A model generated the notes under the pieces. The model ran no database searches. It saw only the letters and a list, made by a program, of their open reading frames with translations, and was not told where the DNA came from. Shown one piece after another: positions 1,984 to 45,665 of a stretch of 64,000 nt of DNA. The first letter of the stretch is position 1, and each line of letters begins with the position of its first letter. The DNA lies in assembly GCA_964106915.2 (NCBI GenBank), contig OZ066920.1. One strand, written 5' to 3'. The position numbers and the translations under genes are program-made. This DNA is from Podarcis gaigeae. Its lineage: Eukaryota.

Positions 1984-3077
1984 ATAATAAATAATAATAA
2001 TAATAAATTTTATTTATATCCCGCCCTCCCCAGCCGAAGCCGGGCTCAGGGCGGCTAACAATAATCAAATAATCAAACAATCAAATAGTTACACATTCAA
2101 AATATTTCATTATAAAAATTAATTAAAATCAAATTAATGGCAACCGATTAAACAAGATTCTGTACAGGTTGCCAGAGGAGGGAGTCAGGCTGGTGGAACA
2201 ACTCTGTCTTGCAGGCCCTGCGGAAAGATGTCAGGTCCCGCAGGGCCCTAGTCTCTTGTGACAGAGCGTTCCACCAGATTGGAGCCGCAGCCAAGAAGGC
2301 CCTGGCTCTAGTTGAGGCCAGCCTAACCTCTCTGAGGCCTGGGACCTTGAGGGTATTATTATTTGCAGACCGTAGGTTTCTCTGTGGGGCATACCAAGAG
2401 AGGCGGTCCCGTAGGTACGAGGGTCCTAGGCCGTATAGGGCTTTAAAGGTTAAAACCAGCACCTTAAACCTAATCCTGTACTCCACCGGGAGCCAGTGCA
2501 GCTGGTATAGTACTGGATGAATGTGATCTCGCAGCGAAGACCCCATAAGGAGTCTCGCCTCAGCATTCTGCACCCGCTGGAGTTTCTGGGTCAGTCTCAA
2601 GGGCAGCCCCACGTAGAGCGAGTTACAATAGTCCAGTCTGGAGGTGACCGTCGCATGGATCACAGTGGCTAGGTCAGGGCGAGAGAGATAAGGGGCCAAC
2701 TGCTTAGCTTGGCGGAGATGAAAAAATGCCGCCTTTGTTATAGCTGTAATCTGCGCCTCCATAGAGAGGGAGGTATCGAAGATTACACCCAAACTCTTAA
2801 CGGATGGTGCTGGCACTAATTGCACCCCCGCAAGAGATGGGAGTTGCCCCCTCAATCCCATATTGTCCCGCCCCAGCCAGAGGACCTCTGTCTTCGAAGG
2901 ATTTAACTTCAACCGGCTCCCACGTAACCATCCAGCCACAGCTTCCAGACATCTCGCCAGTGTGTCTGGGGCCGAGTCAGGATGGCCATCCATCAACAGA
3001 TAGAGTTGGGTGTCATCAGCATACTGATGGCAGCCCAGCCCAAAACTCCGGACAAGCTGGGCGAGGGGGCGCATAAA
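1984..3077 (-). mobile_element. 5'-truncated L2-clade LINE (RT C-terminal half, 3'UTR, simple-repeat tail)
   Basis: ORF 2148..3158(-) contains HQYADDTQLY (RT YADD), SRLDYCNSL and LHWLPVEYRIRFK, typical of L2 ORF2; (TTA)n-type tail at 1984-2006; ORF codons above about 3078 look like read-through of flanking DNA. Confidence 0.93.
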
Positions 3078-6000
3078 GCTGCCCATTTCTCTTTCTCCTT
3101 CCTTTAGCTGTGGTTTCCTTAACAATGACTGACTTCTTTTCACTCTATTCAGCAGCATCTCAAAAATGAATTAAGAAGACTAACTTGCTATTTGCTTCCC
3201 AGAGGCATTGAGCAATGAAAATACTTGAACATAAACAGGACAATAGAGAGAATGCAGAGATGCTGTGTCACTGAGCTCTTTCTGAATAGAAGACATATTC
3301 CTATTTCATTTTGCAAGGCACTTCTTTGGGAGAGATTTATTTGTAGTGACATTAATCAAATGTAAAAAGCTAGGTGTAAGTAGCACAACTGGTAGTGCTA
3401 TGATCAGATATGGTTAGACCTGTGTTCATATAGTAGCATATATTTCTAAGTAGCAAGGGTTTTCCTCTTGCAATTATTCAATGGCATCAAAATTAGGCTT
3501 TGGGGAAACATTGTTTCAAGGTTCTGACCTTTTCAGTCAGTACTCAAGTGTATGTTTTCCATCTAAATCTTGTACAGCTGAGCCACTGACATTTCCAGTT
3601 TCTGCAGATCTAGATCTGGAAACAGCAGCCAGCAGAATCACAGAAGATATTGTGTGCCTTAGTTTTCATTAATTTGACAGCCTAAATAGGATTGTCGCTT
3701 AATATGCCTATCAAGTGTAGCTAAATAGCCCTGACACTTAAATTACAGAGCTGCATATCGTCTGCACAATGAATCAGGGAGGATTCAGAGATAGAGCATT
3801 CATATCATCCCAGGTTTGATTCCAGGTAAAAAGCGTCAAGTAGAAAATGATGTAAAATACCTTTGCCCATGTCACCAAAGAGCTGTTTCTAGTCACAGAA
3901 GATAATGCTGATCTGGACTGACAAATAGTCTGATATGGCAAGATGCAGCTCCCTATGTTCCTGAGAATCAGTTACTGTTTTGCAAAATATTTCTACTCTA
4001 TATGAATGATGAGAAAAAATTATGTTCAGTGTCCCCAATTGCAGAGGTGGAGTATACTAGTTTTCAGTGATGAGATGTGAAGCCTACTCAATGTCTCTGT
4101 GCCTCCATTGCTTGGTTGCTAGGCCAAGACCTTGAAGGGACTTCTATAACGTCTATAAAGAAGACAATTTTCTTTTCAAAGTGCTGAAATTACCAGGGAA
4201 GTCACACATGAGAATTCAGTCTGACTTTCATTTTACAGGAGCCTTTTCAGGGCCTGGACCTGGCAACATTATTCCCCAGTTTCTGGTATCCAAGTTTTCA
4301 TCTTCCGCCTTCTTGCTCTGTCATTGCCTTATGTACCCAACTTAACTGTGCACTCTGCAGATGAACGCCTCCTGCAGATAGCATTTTATCTGGAGGTCCA
4401 TTTCACACAATGTAGGAATCAGCCCTTAAGTGTTGTGGCATTAATGTGTGGCATGCACTGGGGAGAAAGGAATTTCATTTTTCTATTGATAGTTTATGCC
4501 AAGGATGTCTTCCTGAATAAACTTTCATGTATAAATGACAAATGCTCCCTCCTGCCCCTTAAGTATGGCTGAATCTTAAAAACAACAACAACTCAGATCT
4601 AAACAAAAATATACCACCACTCTATTCAAAATTGTGCAACTGTATTTATAAATAGAGCTGTAAAAAATCCACAGCATAATTGAATAATGACTACGCATAA
4701 ATGAGTCCCATTAACTTAATTGTAGTTTGCTGCAGGACTATTGAACCCGGTGGATTTACTTTTTAATTTGCATAGAATTTGTCTAGCCTTTGCATAATTA
4801 GAGAATAGGACAGGTTCTGTCACCATTGCAAAGGATGCTGATGACAGAAGAGTTTGTTTTTGTGAACACGTATCATTCCAAGTTTCGTTTAAGGCAGCCA
4901 AAGATAATCTTGAGACAGCTGGAAGAAAGACTTTGATTTGTTGCAGGTGGCTAGTGTGAGCTCTGTCTTATTACTAGCTCTTTGATTTGTACGACCTCAC
5001 CAGCATCTGTTTTATCAGTGAACATAGGAGATTGCTTAACTGAAGCAGGCAGTAGGTCCACCTTACCTAGTAAGTTTTCTCTGACAAATAGCAGCTCTAC
5101 AAGGTCTTAGGGCAGGGGTTTCTTCTGACCCCTTTAATCTGTGATCTGCTAATGGATGATTTATTTTTATTATTTTATTTTATTTTAAAGCACATTTATG
5201 CCACTCAATATTTCAAAAGTATCAAAGTGGTGTACAGTTTAAAACACATTATATCATTGAAGCATTTTTTAAAAAACCAAAACCTCAACTTAGAACCAGG
5301 AAAACAGCAATATAGAAACCTCTGAATATTTGCTGCACTGTCAGCTGGTATAAACCAGCTGTTTAACTTTGCCACAAGGATGGTGTTAATTCACAGAGCA
5401 AGTGGGACTGTAACAATGGAAGCCCCCTCCTGTCAAAGTGCCCCTGCTGTAACCTTCCAATGTGGACAGTGTGCTCTTTTCACGCTTCCTGCAGATCAAA
5501 ACATAGAAGCTGTTTCCCCTTCCCGCTGCCTCTTTCCTTTCCAGTACCGTACAAACAACAAAAGTGAGAAATGAGGGAAACAAACCTTTTAACCAAGGAA
5601 TCCCCTGGGGTTGAAGCAAGAAGGGAAACTGCTGTAAAAGATCCACATGCATGTTATAACCTAAATTAGATTATTTCATTGGAAACAACTCTTCTGCTAC
5701 CCCATAGATTCCTCTGTGAGAACCCAATTGTCCTTCAAAGGTGGAAATGTCATAATTCTGACACGCTTCTGTAAGCTTTCTGGTGTTTTATTCTGAGTGC
5801 CAAATTCGAAATTGCAAGTGTTAGATAACTCAGCAAGCCATCTGTAAGATGCAAACCATTTTACACACAGTATTTGTTTGCCTTGAATGCATGGAATGAA
5901 AGCACTGATCACATCACTGCAACTCATAAAATAAATAGATCAAGATGCCACATATTTGACCCTAAATGTCACAGTCCAGTGAGCCTTTCTATACAAAATA

Positions 6001-12690: not shown

Positions 12691-13172
12691 TATGGGATAC
12701 TGCCAGTGCTATTTTTCTAGAAAAAGAGATGCAGGAACTCACCGTGAACACCTCCTTTGTTCTCTTATAATGGTAATGGGGCCCATTTGAGAGGTGCCAG
12801 AACCAAGTTCCGGTGAGTTCCAGGTGAAAACAAGCTGTGGACACTGCGCTGTCAGAACATCAGACATATGAACAGAGAGTTCTTAATGCTTCATTAAAAA
12901 CAGATCCTCATGGTATAAGTGGTATAAGTTTTCCTCTTATGCTAACTCAGTCAAACAGCCCACTAATCCCCTGTTCCACAGATAAACAGGTGGAAAGGCT
13001 TTACTGAGAACTGAATTGACTCACCCTTTTTAAAAATAATAATAATGTGATAGTTGAATGCTGTATTGTATTCTCAATTGCTTTCAAGTTTTCCTCCTCG
13101 TTGTATTTCTGCATGCATTTGTATTGGTTACACTTACCACTTTTATTGTGTTATATATATATATATATATAT

Positions 13173-13406
13173 GCTTTCGTAGATTTTCACGGGTACAGGA
13201 ATGCAGGTTTTGGTGTCCTCGGGTGTCTTCCCGTGTAAAAGTTGGGGTGTCTAGGCGACGTTTCGACGAGGTCTCACTCGTCATCTGTTCCAGTAACAAG
13301 AAGCCGAAAGCACCAGCCTGAAGATGACGAGTGAGACCTCGTCGAAACGTCGCCTAGACACCCCAACTTTTACACGGGAAGACACCCGAGGACACCAAAA
13401 CCTGCA
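13173..13406 (-). mobile_element. Miniature Penelope-like insertion: 3' tail and pLTR piece plus an inverted pLTR piece
   Basis: 13202-13286 and 13322-13406 are 85-bp inverted repeats; sequence matches the pLTR of the adjacent element; flanked by (TA)n. Confidence 0.9.
13311..13357 (+). ncRNA. Minimal type I hammerhead ribozyme motif (PLE pLTR)
   Basis: CTGAAGA-T-GACGAG(tgagac)CTCGTC-GAAAC-GTC: conserved core, 6-bp stem II, palindromic minimal stem III; stem I short. Confidence 0.8.
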
Positions 13407-13507
13407 TATATATATATATATATATATTTGCTTTCGTAGATTTTCACGGGTACAGGAATGCAGGTTTTGGTGTCCTCGGGTGTCTTCCCGTGTAAAAGTT
13501 GGGGTGT

Positions 13508-13554
13508 CTAGGCGACGTTTCGACGAGGTCTCACTCGTCATCTTCAGGCTGGTG
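13508..13554 (-). ncRNA. Minimal type I hammerhead ribozyme motif (sense to the PLE ORF)
   Basis: Reverse complement of the same core and stem II; overlaps the ORF stop codon. Confidence 0.8.
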
Positions 13555-14500
13555 CTTTCGGCTTCTTGTTACTGGAACAGAGCGGGATCTCAATGTTTGA
13601 GTTCCTATAAATACTGTAGAGGGGGTGTGGTGTCTAGCCTCCAATGTTCTGGGCAGAGAGGAAGTTCCTAGGCTAGTGTGCCTTTTCTTCTTTTGTTCCT
13701 TAATTACTTGAGAGATACCTTGAGTGATTTCTTGAGTGATATCCTGAGTACCACTTAGGTGGGTCATTAGGTGTGGATTAGTTGCTAAAGTCTTTGTGTC
13801 TTGACCTCTTGAACTTTGTGAAGAGTTTTCCTGAGAAGATGGCTGTATTGCACTTAGTTGTGCTTTGGCTTGGCTTCGTGTATAGGGGCGAGCTGTGGTT
13901 TTGTGGCTTGTGTCAGCCAGATCTGTGTAGGGATTGCAGGGGGGTGCAGCATCCGGAGGTGCCACCATGGATTGGCTACTGGATGGTGTCAGTAATTCAT
14001 CTGTGGAGAGGGTCTGGGTTTGGGTCTGGTGTGGTTGATTGGTGTTGGCGTTCTGTGTGCCTCTGGATCTGGTGTCAGTTTTTGTGGGGAGGGCTAATTT
14101 CCAGATGTCTGGCAAGCGGGATGTGTCGTCACGCTTGTTCATGTTGTGAGGGTGTTTCTCTATCTCGATGGCTTCCATGATTATTCTCTTGTGGTGATGT
14201 TCCGTGTTAAAGAGCAATTTGGAATCTGCAAAATTAATTTCGTGTCCTGTTTCTTTCATGTGTTGGAAAAGAGAGGAAGTTTTTTCTTCTTTTTTGACGG
14301 CATTCTTGTGTTCTGCGATACGTGCATTTATTCGTCTGTTTGTTTGTCCAATGTACGTGGCTGGGCAGACTTTGCAGGGTATTTCATAGATCCCTTGGTT
14401 TTCCAACTGGATTTTATCCTTGGGGTTTCTGAGGATATTGGCTATTTTTTGGTTGGTGCAAAAGGCTGTTTTGATATTGTGTTTATGGAGGATTTTGCTA
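13531..14500 (-). CDS. C-terminal part of a PLE ORF: GIY-YIG endonuclease plus low-complexity tail (RT lost by truncation)
   Basis: QGIYEIPCKVCPATYIGQTNRRINARIAEH...HMKETGH...EAIEIEKHPHNMNKRD has the PLE GIY-YIG signature with its Cys/His residues; uninterrupted for about 320 codons. Confidence 0.9.
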
Positions 14501-14724
14501 ATCCACACCTAATGACCCACCTAAGTGGTACTCAGGATATCACTCAAGAAATCACTCAAGGTATCTCTCAAGTAATTAAGGAACAAAAGAAGAAAAGGCA
14601 CACTAGCCTAGGAACTTCCTCTCTGCCCAGAACATTGGAGGCTAGACACCACACCCCCTCTACAGTATTTATAGGAACTCAAACATTGAGATCCCGCTCT
14701 GTTCCAGTAACAAGAAGCCGAAAG

Positions 14725-14771
14725 CACCAGCCTGAAGATGACGAGTGAGACCTCGTCGAAACGTCGCCTAG
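14725..14771 (+). ncRNA. Minimal type I hammerhead ribozyme motif (inverted pLTR)
   Basis: Same sequence as 13311-13357. Confidence 0.8.
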
Positions 14772-14816
14772 ACACCCCAACTTTTACACGGGAAGACACC
14801 CGAGGACACCAAAACC

Positions 14817-14855
<39 letters not shown>

Positions 14856-14894: not shown

Positions 14895-15350
14895 GTTGTT
14901 GTTCGGATGCCTGAATATCGTCTTCCGAAGCAACTAATCTATTCCCATCTTAAGAATGGAAAGTGAAATACTAATGAGCAACAAAAGAGGCTCTCTAAGC
15001 AAATCTTTTAAAAACTGTAGTACAGTCGTACCTCAGAAGTCAAATGCCTTGCATTTTGAATGTTTTGGCTCCCGAACGCCACAAACCCAGAAGTGAGAGT
15101 TCTGGTATGCAAACGTACTTTGGAACCCGAATGTCCGACACGCATTCTGTGGGTTTCGATTGGCTGCAGGACCTTCCTGCAGCCAACCAGAAGCAAGCCA
15201 TGCCTTGGTTTCCAAATGTTTTGGAAGTCAAACAGATTTCTGGAACAGATTCCATTCGACTTCTGAGGTATGACTGTATAAGCACTGTTAACTGGAAAAC
15301 ACTGGCCAGCGAGCGCTCCAACTGGAGAACAGCCTTTTTACCAAAGGTGT
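14895..15350 (+). mobile_element. RTE-clade LINE fragment interrupted by a MITE
   Basis: RMPEYRLPKQLIYSHLKNGK and NWKTLASERSNWRTAF match the RTE at 58305-59140; the two halves flank the MITE at 15023-15276. Confidence 0.75.
15023..15276. mobile_element. Tigger-like MITE, family B
   Basis: TA-CAGTCGTACCTCAGAAGTC...GACTTCTGAGGTATGACTG-TA. Confidence 0.88.
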
Positions 15351-34001: not shown

Positions 34002-34133
34002 NNNNNNNNNNNNNNNNNNNNNNNNNNNNNNNNNNNNNNNNNNNNNNNNNNNNNNNNNNNNNNNNNNNNNNNNNNNNNNNNNNNNNNNNNNNNNNNNNNN
34101 NNNNNNNNNNNNNNNNNNNNNNNNNNNNNNNNN
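34002..34133. other. Assembly gap (132 N)
   Basis: Run of N. Confidence 1.
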
Positions 34134-34310: not shown

Positions 34311-34937
34311 ATACACAGGATACACACGTACACTTTTCTTTCTTTCTGAAGCTTTCACTGGTTGATGTAAATTGATCTGCAGCAGGGATGGTTGTCCCAG
34401 GAACACAGGATGCTGCCTTATACCGCATAAGACAAGTGGTGGTTCAGTATAGTAGCTGGATCAGTATTGTCTACACTGAGTGGAAACAGCTCCCCAGGAC
34501 TTCAGATAGCCCTCTCTCCCACTCCTACCTGGAGGTGCTGGGGATTGAACTGCAGACATACTGCATGCAAAGTAGATGCTCTACCACAGAGCTACAGCTC
34601 TCCCTGTATGTTGTGAAACTGAGTGAGGCTGATCCTAAAAGGTGGCGTCACTCAGCCTCACCACATGGCTTGTCTTTTTATCCTTCAGGTTTTTAAGGCA
34701 GGGGTTGGGAACCTTTCACAGCTGTGTTCCCTTGTAAGCAATCTTTGGGAGCTGCTGGTAGTACAAGCTGATACATTTTTCTATGTACCAGATTTGCACA
34801 AAAGAGCAGTAAAAAAAATGTGTGGGTGCTACCCCAAGCAAGGACACCTATAAGTCAATTGTGGGTGTGCATGCAGGTATTTGTTTACTTGTGTGTATGC
34901 ACCTTTCATATGTGAAATGCAAGGTTTTCCCCCAATA

Positions 34938-39688: not shown

Positions 39689-40094
39689 ATGCAAGGGGCC
39701 AAGCCATGCCGCCGCCGCTACCACGCGCTGCCTGCCCTCCTCTTCTTCCTGCTCTTCACCTCAGGACGGGCGCCCAGAGCCGAGGGCGCCGCCGCCGCCA
39801 AGAACAAGACCCGGGACCTCCAGAGCCCGGCGGCGGCGGACAGGAAGGCGCTGCTGGAACTCTTGCTCAGAGCCCTCCGCGAGAGGGGCAGCGGCCACAG
39901 CCGCCCTCAGCACCAGGCGCCTTTTCACCCCTTGGGGGCGGAACGGGTCATCGCTCGGCGCTACACGACCGGCGGCGCCCTTTACTCCTCCGCCTCGGTG
40001 GATCGAGAAGCCAGAGTGATCTCGTCGTCGTCGTCCTCCAGGGAGCGAGCGGGCGCGCAGGCACCCAGGTTCTTCACCTCTTCCCGGCATTCAG
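39689..40094 (+). CDS. ALKAL1: ALK and LTK ligand 1 (augmentor-beta, FAM150A), coding exon 1
   Basis: Signal peptide MQGAKP...LPALLFFLLFTSG (human ALKAL1 from memory: MRPLKPGAPLPALFLL); DRKALLELLLRALRE helix resembles other ALKAL N-termini; phase-1 donor TCAG|GTAAGC gives SRHS|E, matching the ALKAL1 SRSA|EIFPRD junction. The diagnostic AUG-domain exons were not found in the window. Confidence 0.8.
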
Positions 40095-42032
40095 GTAAGC
40101 GGAGAACAGCCTAACCCCTAACGGGTCTCGCCCTTCCTGCCCCATCGCAGCTTGGGTCAGAGCTCCTTTGCAGGGGGCAGGGGAAAGAACACGGCTGCCG
40201 CTGTCCATGTGCAAAGCGCCACCCCCTCCCTCAACCCAGTTCCTACCTGGGACTGAGATCTCAAGGCTTGGATTCCAGGTAAGCTTGAATGAGCCTCCGC
40301 CTTCCCTTGCTGATGCGCGCCTCCTCAACGCGATGGTGCTACCTTCTGCTTTCCCCATCCCTAGTAGTTTCGCATAGTAAAGGAGAAGGCTTTAAAACAG
40401 GACCATCCCTGCTCACCGCTCTTACATTGATGCAGCGGGCATCGTTTGAACTCAGGACAGAAGGTTTACCCTCTGGTTTACTTTGACCTAATGACTTCGA
40501 AATGACTTTATTGAAAACAGTGCTACTTTTAACTTTACTTCCAGATGACTGTTAGAAATAGGATGCGGTTGGTAAACAGCCAGGCTGACTTGGTGCTTCC
40601 CAAACATATTGCAAGTGGTAGCTGGGTTTTAGGCCATTTTAAAATGCAAATCAACCTGTTGATTTGCTTACTGTCACTCATGGTTTCAGTGTTGCTGCTC
40701 CAGCTGTTCTGACAAGCCTTATTTCTCTGGCTGGCTCTCCACAGCTCTGGTTTTGTTGTGTCTAGTACAGAGCGTGGTGCTTGATCCTCGGCAGATCTCC
40801 CTAACTTTCTCTGCCTTGTCCTGAAAAGTTCCAGGGTATGCAAGGTTCATTCACTTTCAGGCTCTCCAAGTGCTTATTGAACTGTTAATTGGTACAGGTC
40901 TTCTGAGGCTAAAACCTCAAGGCACCAGCCTTCCAGCTTTATGTACATAGCAGCCGGAGTTCCAGGAGAGTCTGCTGTTGTCTTTCGTTGTGGAGGCAAA
41001 TAGACCCCAAAGAAATCCTTTTTGCAATCTTAAAGGGAGAAACAACACTGGCTCTTGGCATTTCTGTTCTCTGTGTTCCCTGGCAGGAGGCACCCATCTC
41101 CTCTCCTGCACTGAATTAGTTTTTTTAAGGTGGAGATTTCTTTCATGTGTTCTCAGATCACAACCTGGCCCCTGGCATTTATTACTCCCATTTTGCTTCT
41201 GGCTCCACATTGATCAAGATAAAAAAATGCATCTGTTGTTTAGAAAGTGTGTTACTCTTTTTAACACCGAGAAAGAGGCAAAGCCTTCCTAAACAACTAT
41301 AGTTAACATTTTTAAGGGCAAAACACAGTTTACACAACCCACCACATTCCTGGATTTTTAGACAGAGGAAGTGATTAAGTAAGTACTTAGTTTTAGTAGT
41401 GACTTTTGTCAAACTTTTCCATCTTGATAATTTCTTTTCTCTTTTAGTGCCTAAGTGGCTGGAAGTGGAGAGTGATGGTTTGCAAATAAGAGGCACAATG
41501 CACAGAATGCTAGGTCTACCCAAGTCCCACTAAAATACATCAAATGAAGGCAGTGGATTTGATCCAACAGACGGCTTGTGTAAACTGAAGGAGCTCCTGC
41601 TCACCAGACAAGGCTGTCCTTATTTTTGCTGGTCCTCCTCCAGCTGTGACCACCCCATGTCTCATATCACACCATTCCTAAGGGTCTTTGGATGTCAGGA
41701 TCAGGAGGCTGCAATGAGATGGAGGCAACAAACTCCATCTGGAGTTCATAGGACCCAGCATAGAATGATTTATGCGATTTTTTTGCTTCAGTTCTGACTC
41801 ATCGGAACTTACATGAGCCTGTCTTTGGATTGTACCCGAAGACAATAGTTATTTTCTTTCCCAAGAGCTGCATCTACACGAGGACAAATCTGTGTGAGTT
41901 CAGTTGTACATTGTATAGTCGTCAATGCATAACTGATATATCTGGTCTGTACAATGCCTTTGGGAAGTTTTCTGTCAGATGCAAGCAAGTAAGCCACTCA
42001 ATCTGCACTGTAGGCAAGGTGCTTTGGCAGTA

Positions 42033-45514: not shown

Positions 45515-45665
45515 TTTTGTGGTACTTTAAAGACTAGCACATCTGGTATGAGATAACCTGGTATGGATGGGAGTGCAATTCATCATATGCAACACTTCAT
45601 CACAGATCTGATGAAGTAGACTCTCGTTTATGAAATCTAATGCTACAACAAATCTGTTAGTCTGT
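45515..45665 (+). mobile_element. Degenerate PLE pLTR with decayed hammerhead
   Basis: CTGATGA-AGTAGAC..GTTTAT-GAAA at 45608-45635; AAATCTGTTAGTCT is roughly inverted to AGACTAGCACATCT at the left end. Confidence 0.5.

Follow-up and report, generated by a model that had tools for sequence, protein, structure and literature searches.

Why should a short stretch of the Podarcis gaigeae genome carry hammerhead ribozyme motifs on both strands, and would RNA made from it be cut by them? An earlier note on this DNA, a stretch of 64,000 nucleotides that we call the window, had counted three intact motifs and a truncated fourth, and had proposed that two of them pair in cis to release an RNA antisense to an endonuclease. 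The motifs proved to be real. In our joint reading, which we hold to be highly probable, the locus consists of two recent, dead, 5'-truncated Penelope/Poseidon insertions that copied the hammerheads passively, and the motifs are most likely inert.

One hammerhead core in four copies

A descriptor scan of the whole window (64 kb) found an identical minimal type I core in three copies and a truncated fourth, distributed over both strands. Core 1 lies at 13318-13351 on the plus strand (CUGA from 13318, cut after 13351), core 2 at 13514-13547 on the minus strand, in the element's own sense orientation (CUGA from 13547, cut after 13514), and core 3 at 14732-14765 on the plus strand (CUGA from 14732, cut after 14765). 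The plus-strand cut sites predicted earlier, 13351 and 14765, and their spacing of 1414 nt are exact; the start coordinates given with them need adjusting, as 13311 and 14725 precede the CUGA by 7 nt and 13508 marks the lower boundary of the minus-strand copy. All three copies read CUGAAGA-U-GACGAG/CUCGUC (a 6-bp stem II)-GAAAC-GUC. The fourth, on the minus strand near 13250-13286, reads ...GGAACAGAUGA... at the junction 13284-13286 and has lost its CUGA at the inversion, just as the earlier note had it. By chance, 0.03 such cores would be expected per 64-kb window (100 first-order Markov windows, stem II of at least 6 bp). Since the repeats of the element end in which all four cores sit are 100% identical, we have a single motif that two insertions copied, not independent occurrences.

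The three copies have the CUGANGA and GAAA core, an NUH cut site, stem II and the palindromic positions 15.2-16.2 of minimal hammerheads, and their identification as the minimal type I hammerheads of PLE pseudo-LTRs (pLTRs) with a palindromic stem III holds. Stem III is an ACGU palindrome without a loop. The word 'intact' applies to the core, stem II and the palindrome, but not to stem I, for which the best solution in our folding computation is 2 bp at -2.0 kcal/mol. The minimal hammerheads described in PMC4209133 likewise have no loop III, a palindromic 15.2-16.2, an extra base between 9 and 10.1, a G10.1-C11.1 pair, a long stem II and opposite-strand pairs within a few hundred bases; their stem I usually has 4-5 bp, and the 2 bp seen here recall the D. 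virilis variant of the same report. Opposite-strand minimal hammerheads 100-700 bp apart, with low dimer activity and a circle hypothesis, were described there in 2014.

A search with the Rfam hammerhead covariance models, which the earlier note had proposed as a check, came back without a match, both at the gathering score and at E up to 10 (0 of the 25 matches listed). This lowers only the claim to Rfam membership. Rfam miRNA-family matches at the locus reflect hairpins only. Folds of the tail stem-loop and of the monomer were no better than those of shuffles (z -0.32 and -1.21), and no hammerhead variants were found among those listed in four sequencing runs. Elsewhere in the window, at 45608-45639 on the plus strand, there is a second, unrelated and apparently decayed hammerhead-like core that folds no better than shuffles and is possibly an old PLE remnant.

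Two inverted units in a TA microsatellite

What are the repeats that hold the cores? The region 13152-14851 contains two element units side by side in a (TA)n tract, remnants of which flank and separate them: 21 nt on the left (13152-13172), a spacer of 22 nt (13406-13427) and 32 nt on the right (14820-14851). We number offsets along the element from the A of its ATG inside the hammerhead, which is +1, the preceding base being 0. Unit B (13173-13407) joins a tailed arm on the minus strand (13173-13286, offsets -1 to +112), which carries the hammerhead without CUGA, to an inverted tail-less arm on the plus strand (13284-13407, offsets -39 to +84); the two meet head to head at 13284-13286, where a TCT microhomology of 3 nt is common to both arms. 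Unit A (13428-14821) has a tailed arm on the minus strand (13428-14499, offsets about -957 to +114), a 5'-truncated body with the GIY-YIG endonuclease, the pLTR and the tail but no RT, and an inverted tail-less arm of 324 nt on the plus strand (14498-14821, offsets -239 to +84) that is 100% complementary to 13458-13781; the microhomology at its junction is at least AG and up to ATTAG. The 30-nt PLE 'tail', as defined in PMC11167929 and PMC8557442, is present on one arm only (13428-13457 on the minus strand, offsets +85 to +114). In all, the locus contains direct repeats of 144 and 135 nt and inverted repeats of 324, 124 and 86 nt, each 99-100% identical.

The outer ends of the units follow a pattern: both tail-less arms end at +84, and the tails end at +112 in unit B and +114 in unit A. 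In unit A the tailed arm covers the tail-less arm's entire range of offsets. In unit B the tail-less arm extends 38 nt further upstream than the tailed arm, which has 28 nt extra at the tail. All four arms cross the hammerhead cut site at +28.

An inverted 5'-truncated copy and a one-sided tail of 30-40 nt are typical of PLEs (PMC8557442, Craig et al. 2021; PMC3846280, Arkhipova et al. 2013), and each unit, with its tailed arm and inverted tail-less arm, has the textbook PLE layout. The insertions described in these two reports resemble ours in the inverted 5'-truncated copy at the 5' end, the 30-nt tail at one end, the microhomology junction and the microsatellite target that hides any TSD; nothing essential differs from what is described there, and the two units of the window share one TA tract. 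PLEs tend to insert adjacent to one another, according to the review PMC6765202. The pLTR with hammerhead and ORF start, the optional 30-40-nt tail and the inverted 5' copy by which a PLE is recognized are all present, the start-codon frame with weak support. The hammerhead cluster is ordinary end-piece debris of a known retroelement type.

But could the hammerheads mark a non-LTR retrozyme instead? Retrozymes also carry type I hammerheads derived from PLE pLTRs (bioRxiv 10.64898/2026.07.22.740005; see also PMC7229834). They are described in the former report as non-coding head-to-tail tandem units, each with a complete hammerhead, whereas the same-strand motifs of the window lie on separate fragments that are inverted, and they do not enclose a repeat unit. 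Of the 1414-nt interval that they bound, only 144 nt are directly repeated, and the interval holds the endonuclease ORF and inverted arms. Because there are no tandem units, we rejected this assignment.

The endonuclease identifies a Penelope/Poseidon element

The minus strand of unit A carries a 325-codon frame with a GIY-YIG domain. This C-terminal part of the ORF (13531-14502) comprises the endonuclease region with its CCHH motif (14020-14502) and a 184-codon extension through the pLTR. The first 161 residues of the frame are 97% identical to the Podarcis muralis protein P0002. The Pfam GIY-YIG match has an E-value of 2.7e-4 and 21.6 bits, slightly below the cut-off of 22.6, and the two Cys and two His of the CCHH motif are invariant across 13 aligned relatives. 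In P0002, an RT (RVT_1, E 4e-16) precedes the GIY-YIG domain; in the window it has been truncated away. The 130 aa preceding the GIY motif of P0002 contain no CxxC, which occurs in the linker of 1 of the 62 relatives scored. Absence of the linker zinc finger CX2-5CxxC together with presence of the CCHH motif is given in PMC8557442 as the mark of Penelope/Poseidon that separates this clade from Neptune and Nematis. Judged by these sequence characters, the element is an EN+ PLE of the Penelope/Poseidon clade and a new member of it. Our literature search, which had incomplete coverage, found no matching description of Penelope in Podarcis.

P0002 is 47% identical over 563 aa to the Anolis protein P0217, the N-terminus of which, compared by eye, is in agreement with the PAc RNA shown in Fig. 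S1 of PMC11167929. PAc, a Poseidon element of Anolis carolinensis, is the best point of reference for the locus: as described in that report, it shares the C-terminal GIY-YIG domain, the ORF start at stem II of the hammerhead and the AT-rich target (PMC11167929, Frangieh et al. 2024). The cut lies 26 nt after the start in PAc and at +28 here, and the tail ends at +112 to +116 here, compared with 111-118 in PAc. PAc is nevertheless a separate family, and the window has only truncated copies without RT. Further differences are that the window ORF runs across the whole pLTR and stops in the hammerhead, whereas PAc is described with an ORF-pLTR junction, and that the frame of the start codon relative to the GAAACGUC core is not the same in the two elements.

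The 97% match within Podarcis had made us consider horizontal transfer. We dropped this because the host gene ALKAL1 is equally 97% identical to P. muralis. Three snake gene models named P2Y purinoceptor 1, acyl-CoA thioesterase 12 and olfactory receptor 10A7-like (P0004, P0010 and P0015) contain pieces of this PLE family and are likely annotation artefacts or exonised fragments.

A young insertion of a high-copy family

How old are the insertions, and how common is the element? We compared the window with all contigs of 4 of the 24 listed sequencing runs. The run search listed no RNA run that carries the locus, a result that does not bear on its expression. A contig of run X4, from another organism, has 63 letters between 13139 and 14876, compared with 1736 in the window. 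As 36 of these letters are unique flank, about 27 nt are left for the TA tract. To judge by this one contig, the related species has an empty site, which would make the insertions young. In run X1, depth sums to 222,000-601,000 over the element bins, compared with about 90 in the unique flank; these sums do not give a copy number, but they mark the family as high-copy. In 21 X1 contigs the element stops at +84 and (AT)n follows; at most two of these may come from this locus. Strand inversions account for 12 of the 17 element-internal joints listed in X1, each with its own breakpoint pair; none of the 24 arm ends of these inversions falls at the cut site, and four fall between -8 and +1, where the hammerhead has its 5' edge. 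No contig among those listed spans the junctions of this locus itself, the left-flank contigs of X1 and X3 stopping at 13139.

A contig of run X16 (contig 14; another organism and another copy) differs in a revealing way: 13 of its 14 listed differences, between 14238 and 14436, are A>G. They fall at all codon positions, and a 5' G is depleted (1 of 11, compared with 12 of 20; p=0.008). We read this as the signature of ADAR A-to-I editing on the strand antisense to the ORF, the run being guessed to be RNA and having no matched DNA. Penelope has been described as a massively edited LINE-type repeat in lizard (PMC5625713) and as massively edited in X. tropicalis too (PMC10636886).

The (TA)n microsatellite that received the insertions lies upstream of ALKAL1, at a distance of about 25 kb. 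A coding exon of this gene was placed at about 39695-40114 on the plus strand, in a GC-rich island. Among 149 stop-free plus-strand frames of at least 52 aa in positions 1-39000, none had a Pfam match that would indicate a host exon near the insertion; this count leaves out 146 frames of the minus strand. Two other high-copy repeats flank the insertion, as judged by depth and loose ends, at 12700-12830 and 15020-15340, and there is a 26-nt inverted repeat at 15021/15253. A 340-codon frame at 2148-3170 on the minus strand looks by eye like what we take to be the 3' part of a LINE reverse transcriptase. The window also contains a gap of 132 N at 34002-34133 and a tRNA-like match of 35.5 bits at 34530-34601 on the minus strand, probably a SINE head.

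How the inverted units may have formed

The arm ends suggest a route by which one insertion could leave hammerheads on both strands. The element's RT-endonuclease would cut both strands of an AT-rich target, here the (TA)n tract, and each target end would prime a cDNA with uncleaved element RNA as template. One cDNA would begin where the tail ends (+112 to +116), its partner where the tail begins (+84 to +86). Both would stop early, and a microhomology of 2-5 nt would join them head to head, so that each unit has a tailed arm and an inverted arm that lacks the tail. For PAc, RT is reported to start on either side of the tail, at two internal sites of which one lies at 111-118; cutting and extension take place on both target strands, and AT-rich DNA is preferred (PMC11167929). 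Uncleaved RNA is the main substrate of PAc, and its cleavage requires protein (PMC11167929). Since all four arms cross the +28 cut, the templates at our locus would likewise have been uncleaved, as for PAc in vitro. Taken on its own, two-site priming is somewhat favored in our estimation. No matching description of twin priming in PLEs was found in the literature, our coverage of which is incomplete.

Alternatively, the same element with the same inert motifs may have acquired its inverted arms when a single intermediate primed itself or folded back, a route put forward for rotifer PLEs on the strength of palindromes found at inverted junctions (PMC3846280). This explanation competes with the formation step only, not with the identity of the element. 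Unit A fits it, its tail-less arm being nested in the span of the tailed arm, and one X1 joint, at +44/+45, is a near-perfect palindrome. Unit B does not fit unless there was a further deletion: its tail-less arm reaches 38 nt further upstream, which would mean that neither arm was simply copied from the other by fold-back. The pattern of unit B could also result from an asymmetric deletion that followed insertion. A further point against fold-back is that the two outer ends correspond to the two positions at which RT was measured to start in PAc (PMC11167929). We regard a fold-back origin as unlikely, if still a serious candidate, and prefer two-site priming.

An open frame through the pLTR

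The putative start codon of the element (13539-13541 on the minus strand, an ATG preceded by GAAG) lies at the start of stem II inside the hammerhead, a placement like that in PAc. Its frame is open to the end of the tail and ends in RENLRKQI. This peptide is weakly similar to a motif picked post hoc, ESL..I..LYG, which 12 of 267 relatives have at the N-terminus (2.5 bits; E 0.019, three frames considered). Pairwise alignment of the N-terminal peptide with P0217 was not significant, 1629 of 5000 shuffles scoring as well, and there was no alignment with P0025, which begins downstream.

At the other end, the frame behind the endonuclease stays open for 184 codons across the whole pLTR (within 13531-14105 on the minus strand) and stops at a TGA (13533-13531) in the loop of stem II, which makes an 11-nt overlap with the start codon of the unit that follows. 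Such openness survived in 2 of 5000 dinucleotide shuffles, and the other two frames have 11 and 10 stops. A P[ED][ED] signature within the last residues occurs in 4 of the 223 relatives that span the endonuclease end: in the identical P0001, in P0005 and P0007 in exactly this register, and in P0185. In the first set of 163 relatives, 0.03 matches in the exact register would be expected. P0217 and most relatives are without this stop signature. Among the extension variants seen, all 10 change the amino acid and none is nonsense, and identity to P0002 is 104/118 in the extension and 128/132 in the endonuclease; we count these two findings, and the lack of the signature in P0217, against a constrained protein tail. 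A search for hammerheads at the ORF ends of relatives at the DNA level gave five distant metagenome loci that were uninformative and none in viral contigs.

These features would allow the whole repeat unit of the autonomous element to be coding, with the hammerhead as a translation switch: the ORF would run from the ribozyme AUG to a UGA 11 nt into the next unit and so be longer than one unit. We consider this reading, switch and extended ORF together, improbable. For a stop codon inside a hammerhead, no matching description was found in the literature covered, which includes passages from PMC13725137 and excludes Repbase/Dfam and most subscription papers.

In the post-endonuclease tails of Poseidon-type relatives (P0001-P0279), TRS occurs in 30 of 170 tails (2.2 expected) and [YH]xLR[SP] in 10 of 170 (0.5 expected); the tail in the window has PYTRS. 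Both motifs resemble what we take to be the nucleosome acidic-patch anchors of viral proteins. A literature search of incomplete coverage yielded no matching description of acidic-patch motifs in retrotransposons.

Would the motifs cleave RNA from this locus?

RNA read across either strand is predicted to fold most likely into perfect duplexes of 86-324 bp, in which the cores are buried and which would suit ADAR editing or RNA silencing. These folding energies come from equilibrium models without proteins; the cleavage of PAc is described as protein-assisted (PMC11167929).

The better of the two cleavage models involves motif 3 only. Antisense RNA that starts behind the TATAAATA box (13606-13613 on the plus strand, antisense to the element, with a mirror copy at 14666-14673) would run through the endonuclease and be cut at 14765 with the help of an element protein or of a partner RNA from another copy. 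The box is a putative TATA match, and opposite promoter motifs in pLTRs have been proposed before (PMC3846280). RNA from 13635 lacks the complement of motif 3; in its MFE structure stem II forms, and an open core costs 2.8 kcal/mol. The strand that bears the editing signature in the X16 contig is antisense to the ORF, and PAc cleaves as a protein-assisted ribozyme (PMC11167929). However, a TATA match is not itself a promoter and no start site was seen; stem I has 2 bp, RNA from behind the box holds no second motif, and two isolated motifs co-fold via CAGCCUG into an inactive pair rather than an active dimer. We therefore judge this model very unlikely.

The model of the earlier note, in which motifs 1 and 3 of one plus-strand transcript form a double hammerhead and release a 1414-nt, possibly circular RNA antisense to the endonuclease, fares worse still. 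The same strand supplies two identical copies of the core, each with the ACGU palindrome, the topology is nested and can be written, and dimers of minimal hammerheads are reported to cleave weakly in vitro (PMC4209133; review PMC6765202). However, both plus-strand copies are by-products of two separate inversions, each with a perfect complement in the same transcript. Relative to the foldbacks, the cis dimer costs +127 kcal/mol in read-through RNA, +72 kcal/mol in RNA that starts at 13290, just before the first motif, and still +24 kcal/mol with the antisense pLTR removed in silico. Motif 1 is buried once made, its stem II having a pairing probability of 0.0 at nascent 3' ends 13360, 13410 and 13600, and in a shorter RNA only one of the two motifs can be free. 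The excised piece would itself be a 268-bp hairpin and is not a unit length of the element. The arrangement is missing from the contig of the related organism and hence young, and in PAc, RNA-seq gave no reads starting or ending at the cut site (PMC11167929). Because of the cost of +72 to +127 kcal/mol against perfect foldbacks, the 2-bp stem I and the editing signature in an RNA-type contig, the excision model is unsupported, and we give it almost no credence.

Equally implausible is that the four copies arose from collapsed or mis-joined repeats in the assembly: the arms are identical throughout (100%), assemblers are known to have difficulty with structures of this kind (PMC8557442) and none of the contigs listed spans the locus, but the units differ in their junctions and tail ends (+112 and +114) and have microhomology, they obey the rules of the family, contigs of a DNA-type run have like inversion joints, and there is no N nearby.

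What the locus means

The locus itself is of little importance, being typical debris of a high-copy retroelement. It does illustrate two points of PLE biology well. Both units have one end at each of the two positions homologous to the RT start sites of PAc, in opposite orientation, and a two-primer origin of the inverted pLTR thereby becomes testable by a genome census. The reading of the hammerhead as a translation switch, if true, would mean that cleavage at +28 yields a unit-length RNA without the start codon at its 5' end, and that the full ORF is regained only in uncut tandem RNA or after circularisation. If the overlap of stop and start inside the hammerhead were general and selected, it would give the PLE hammerhead a function in the control of translation.
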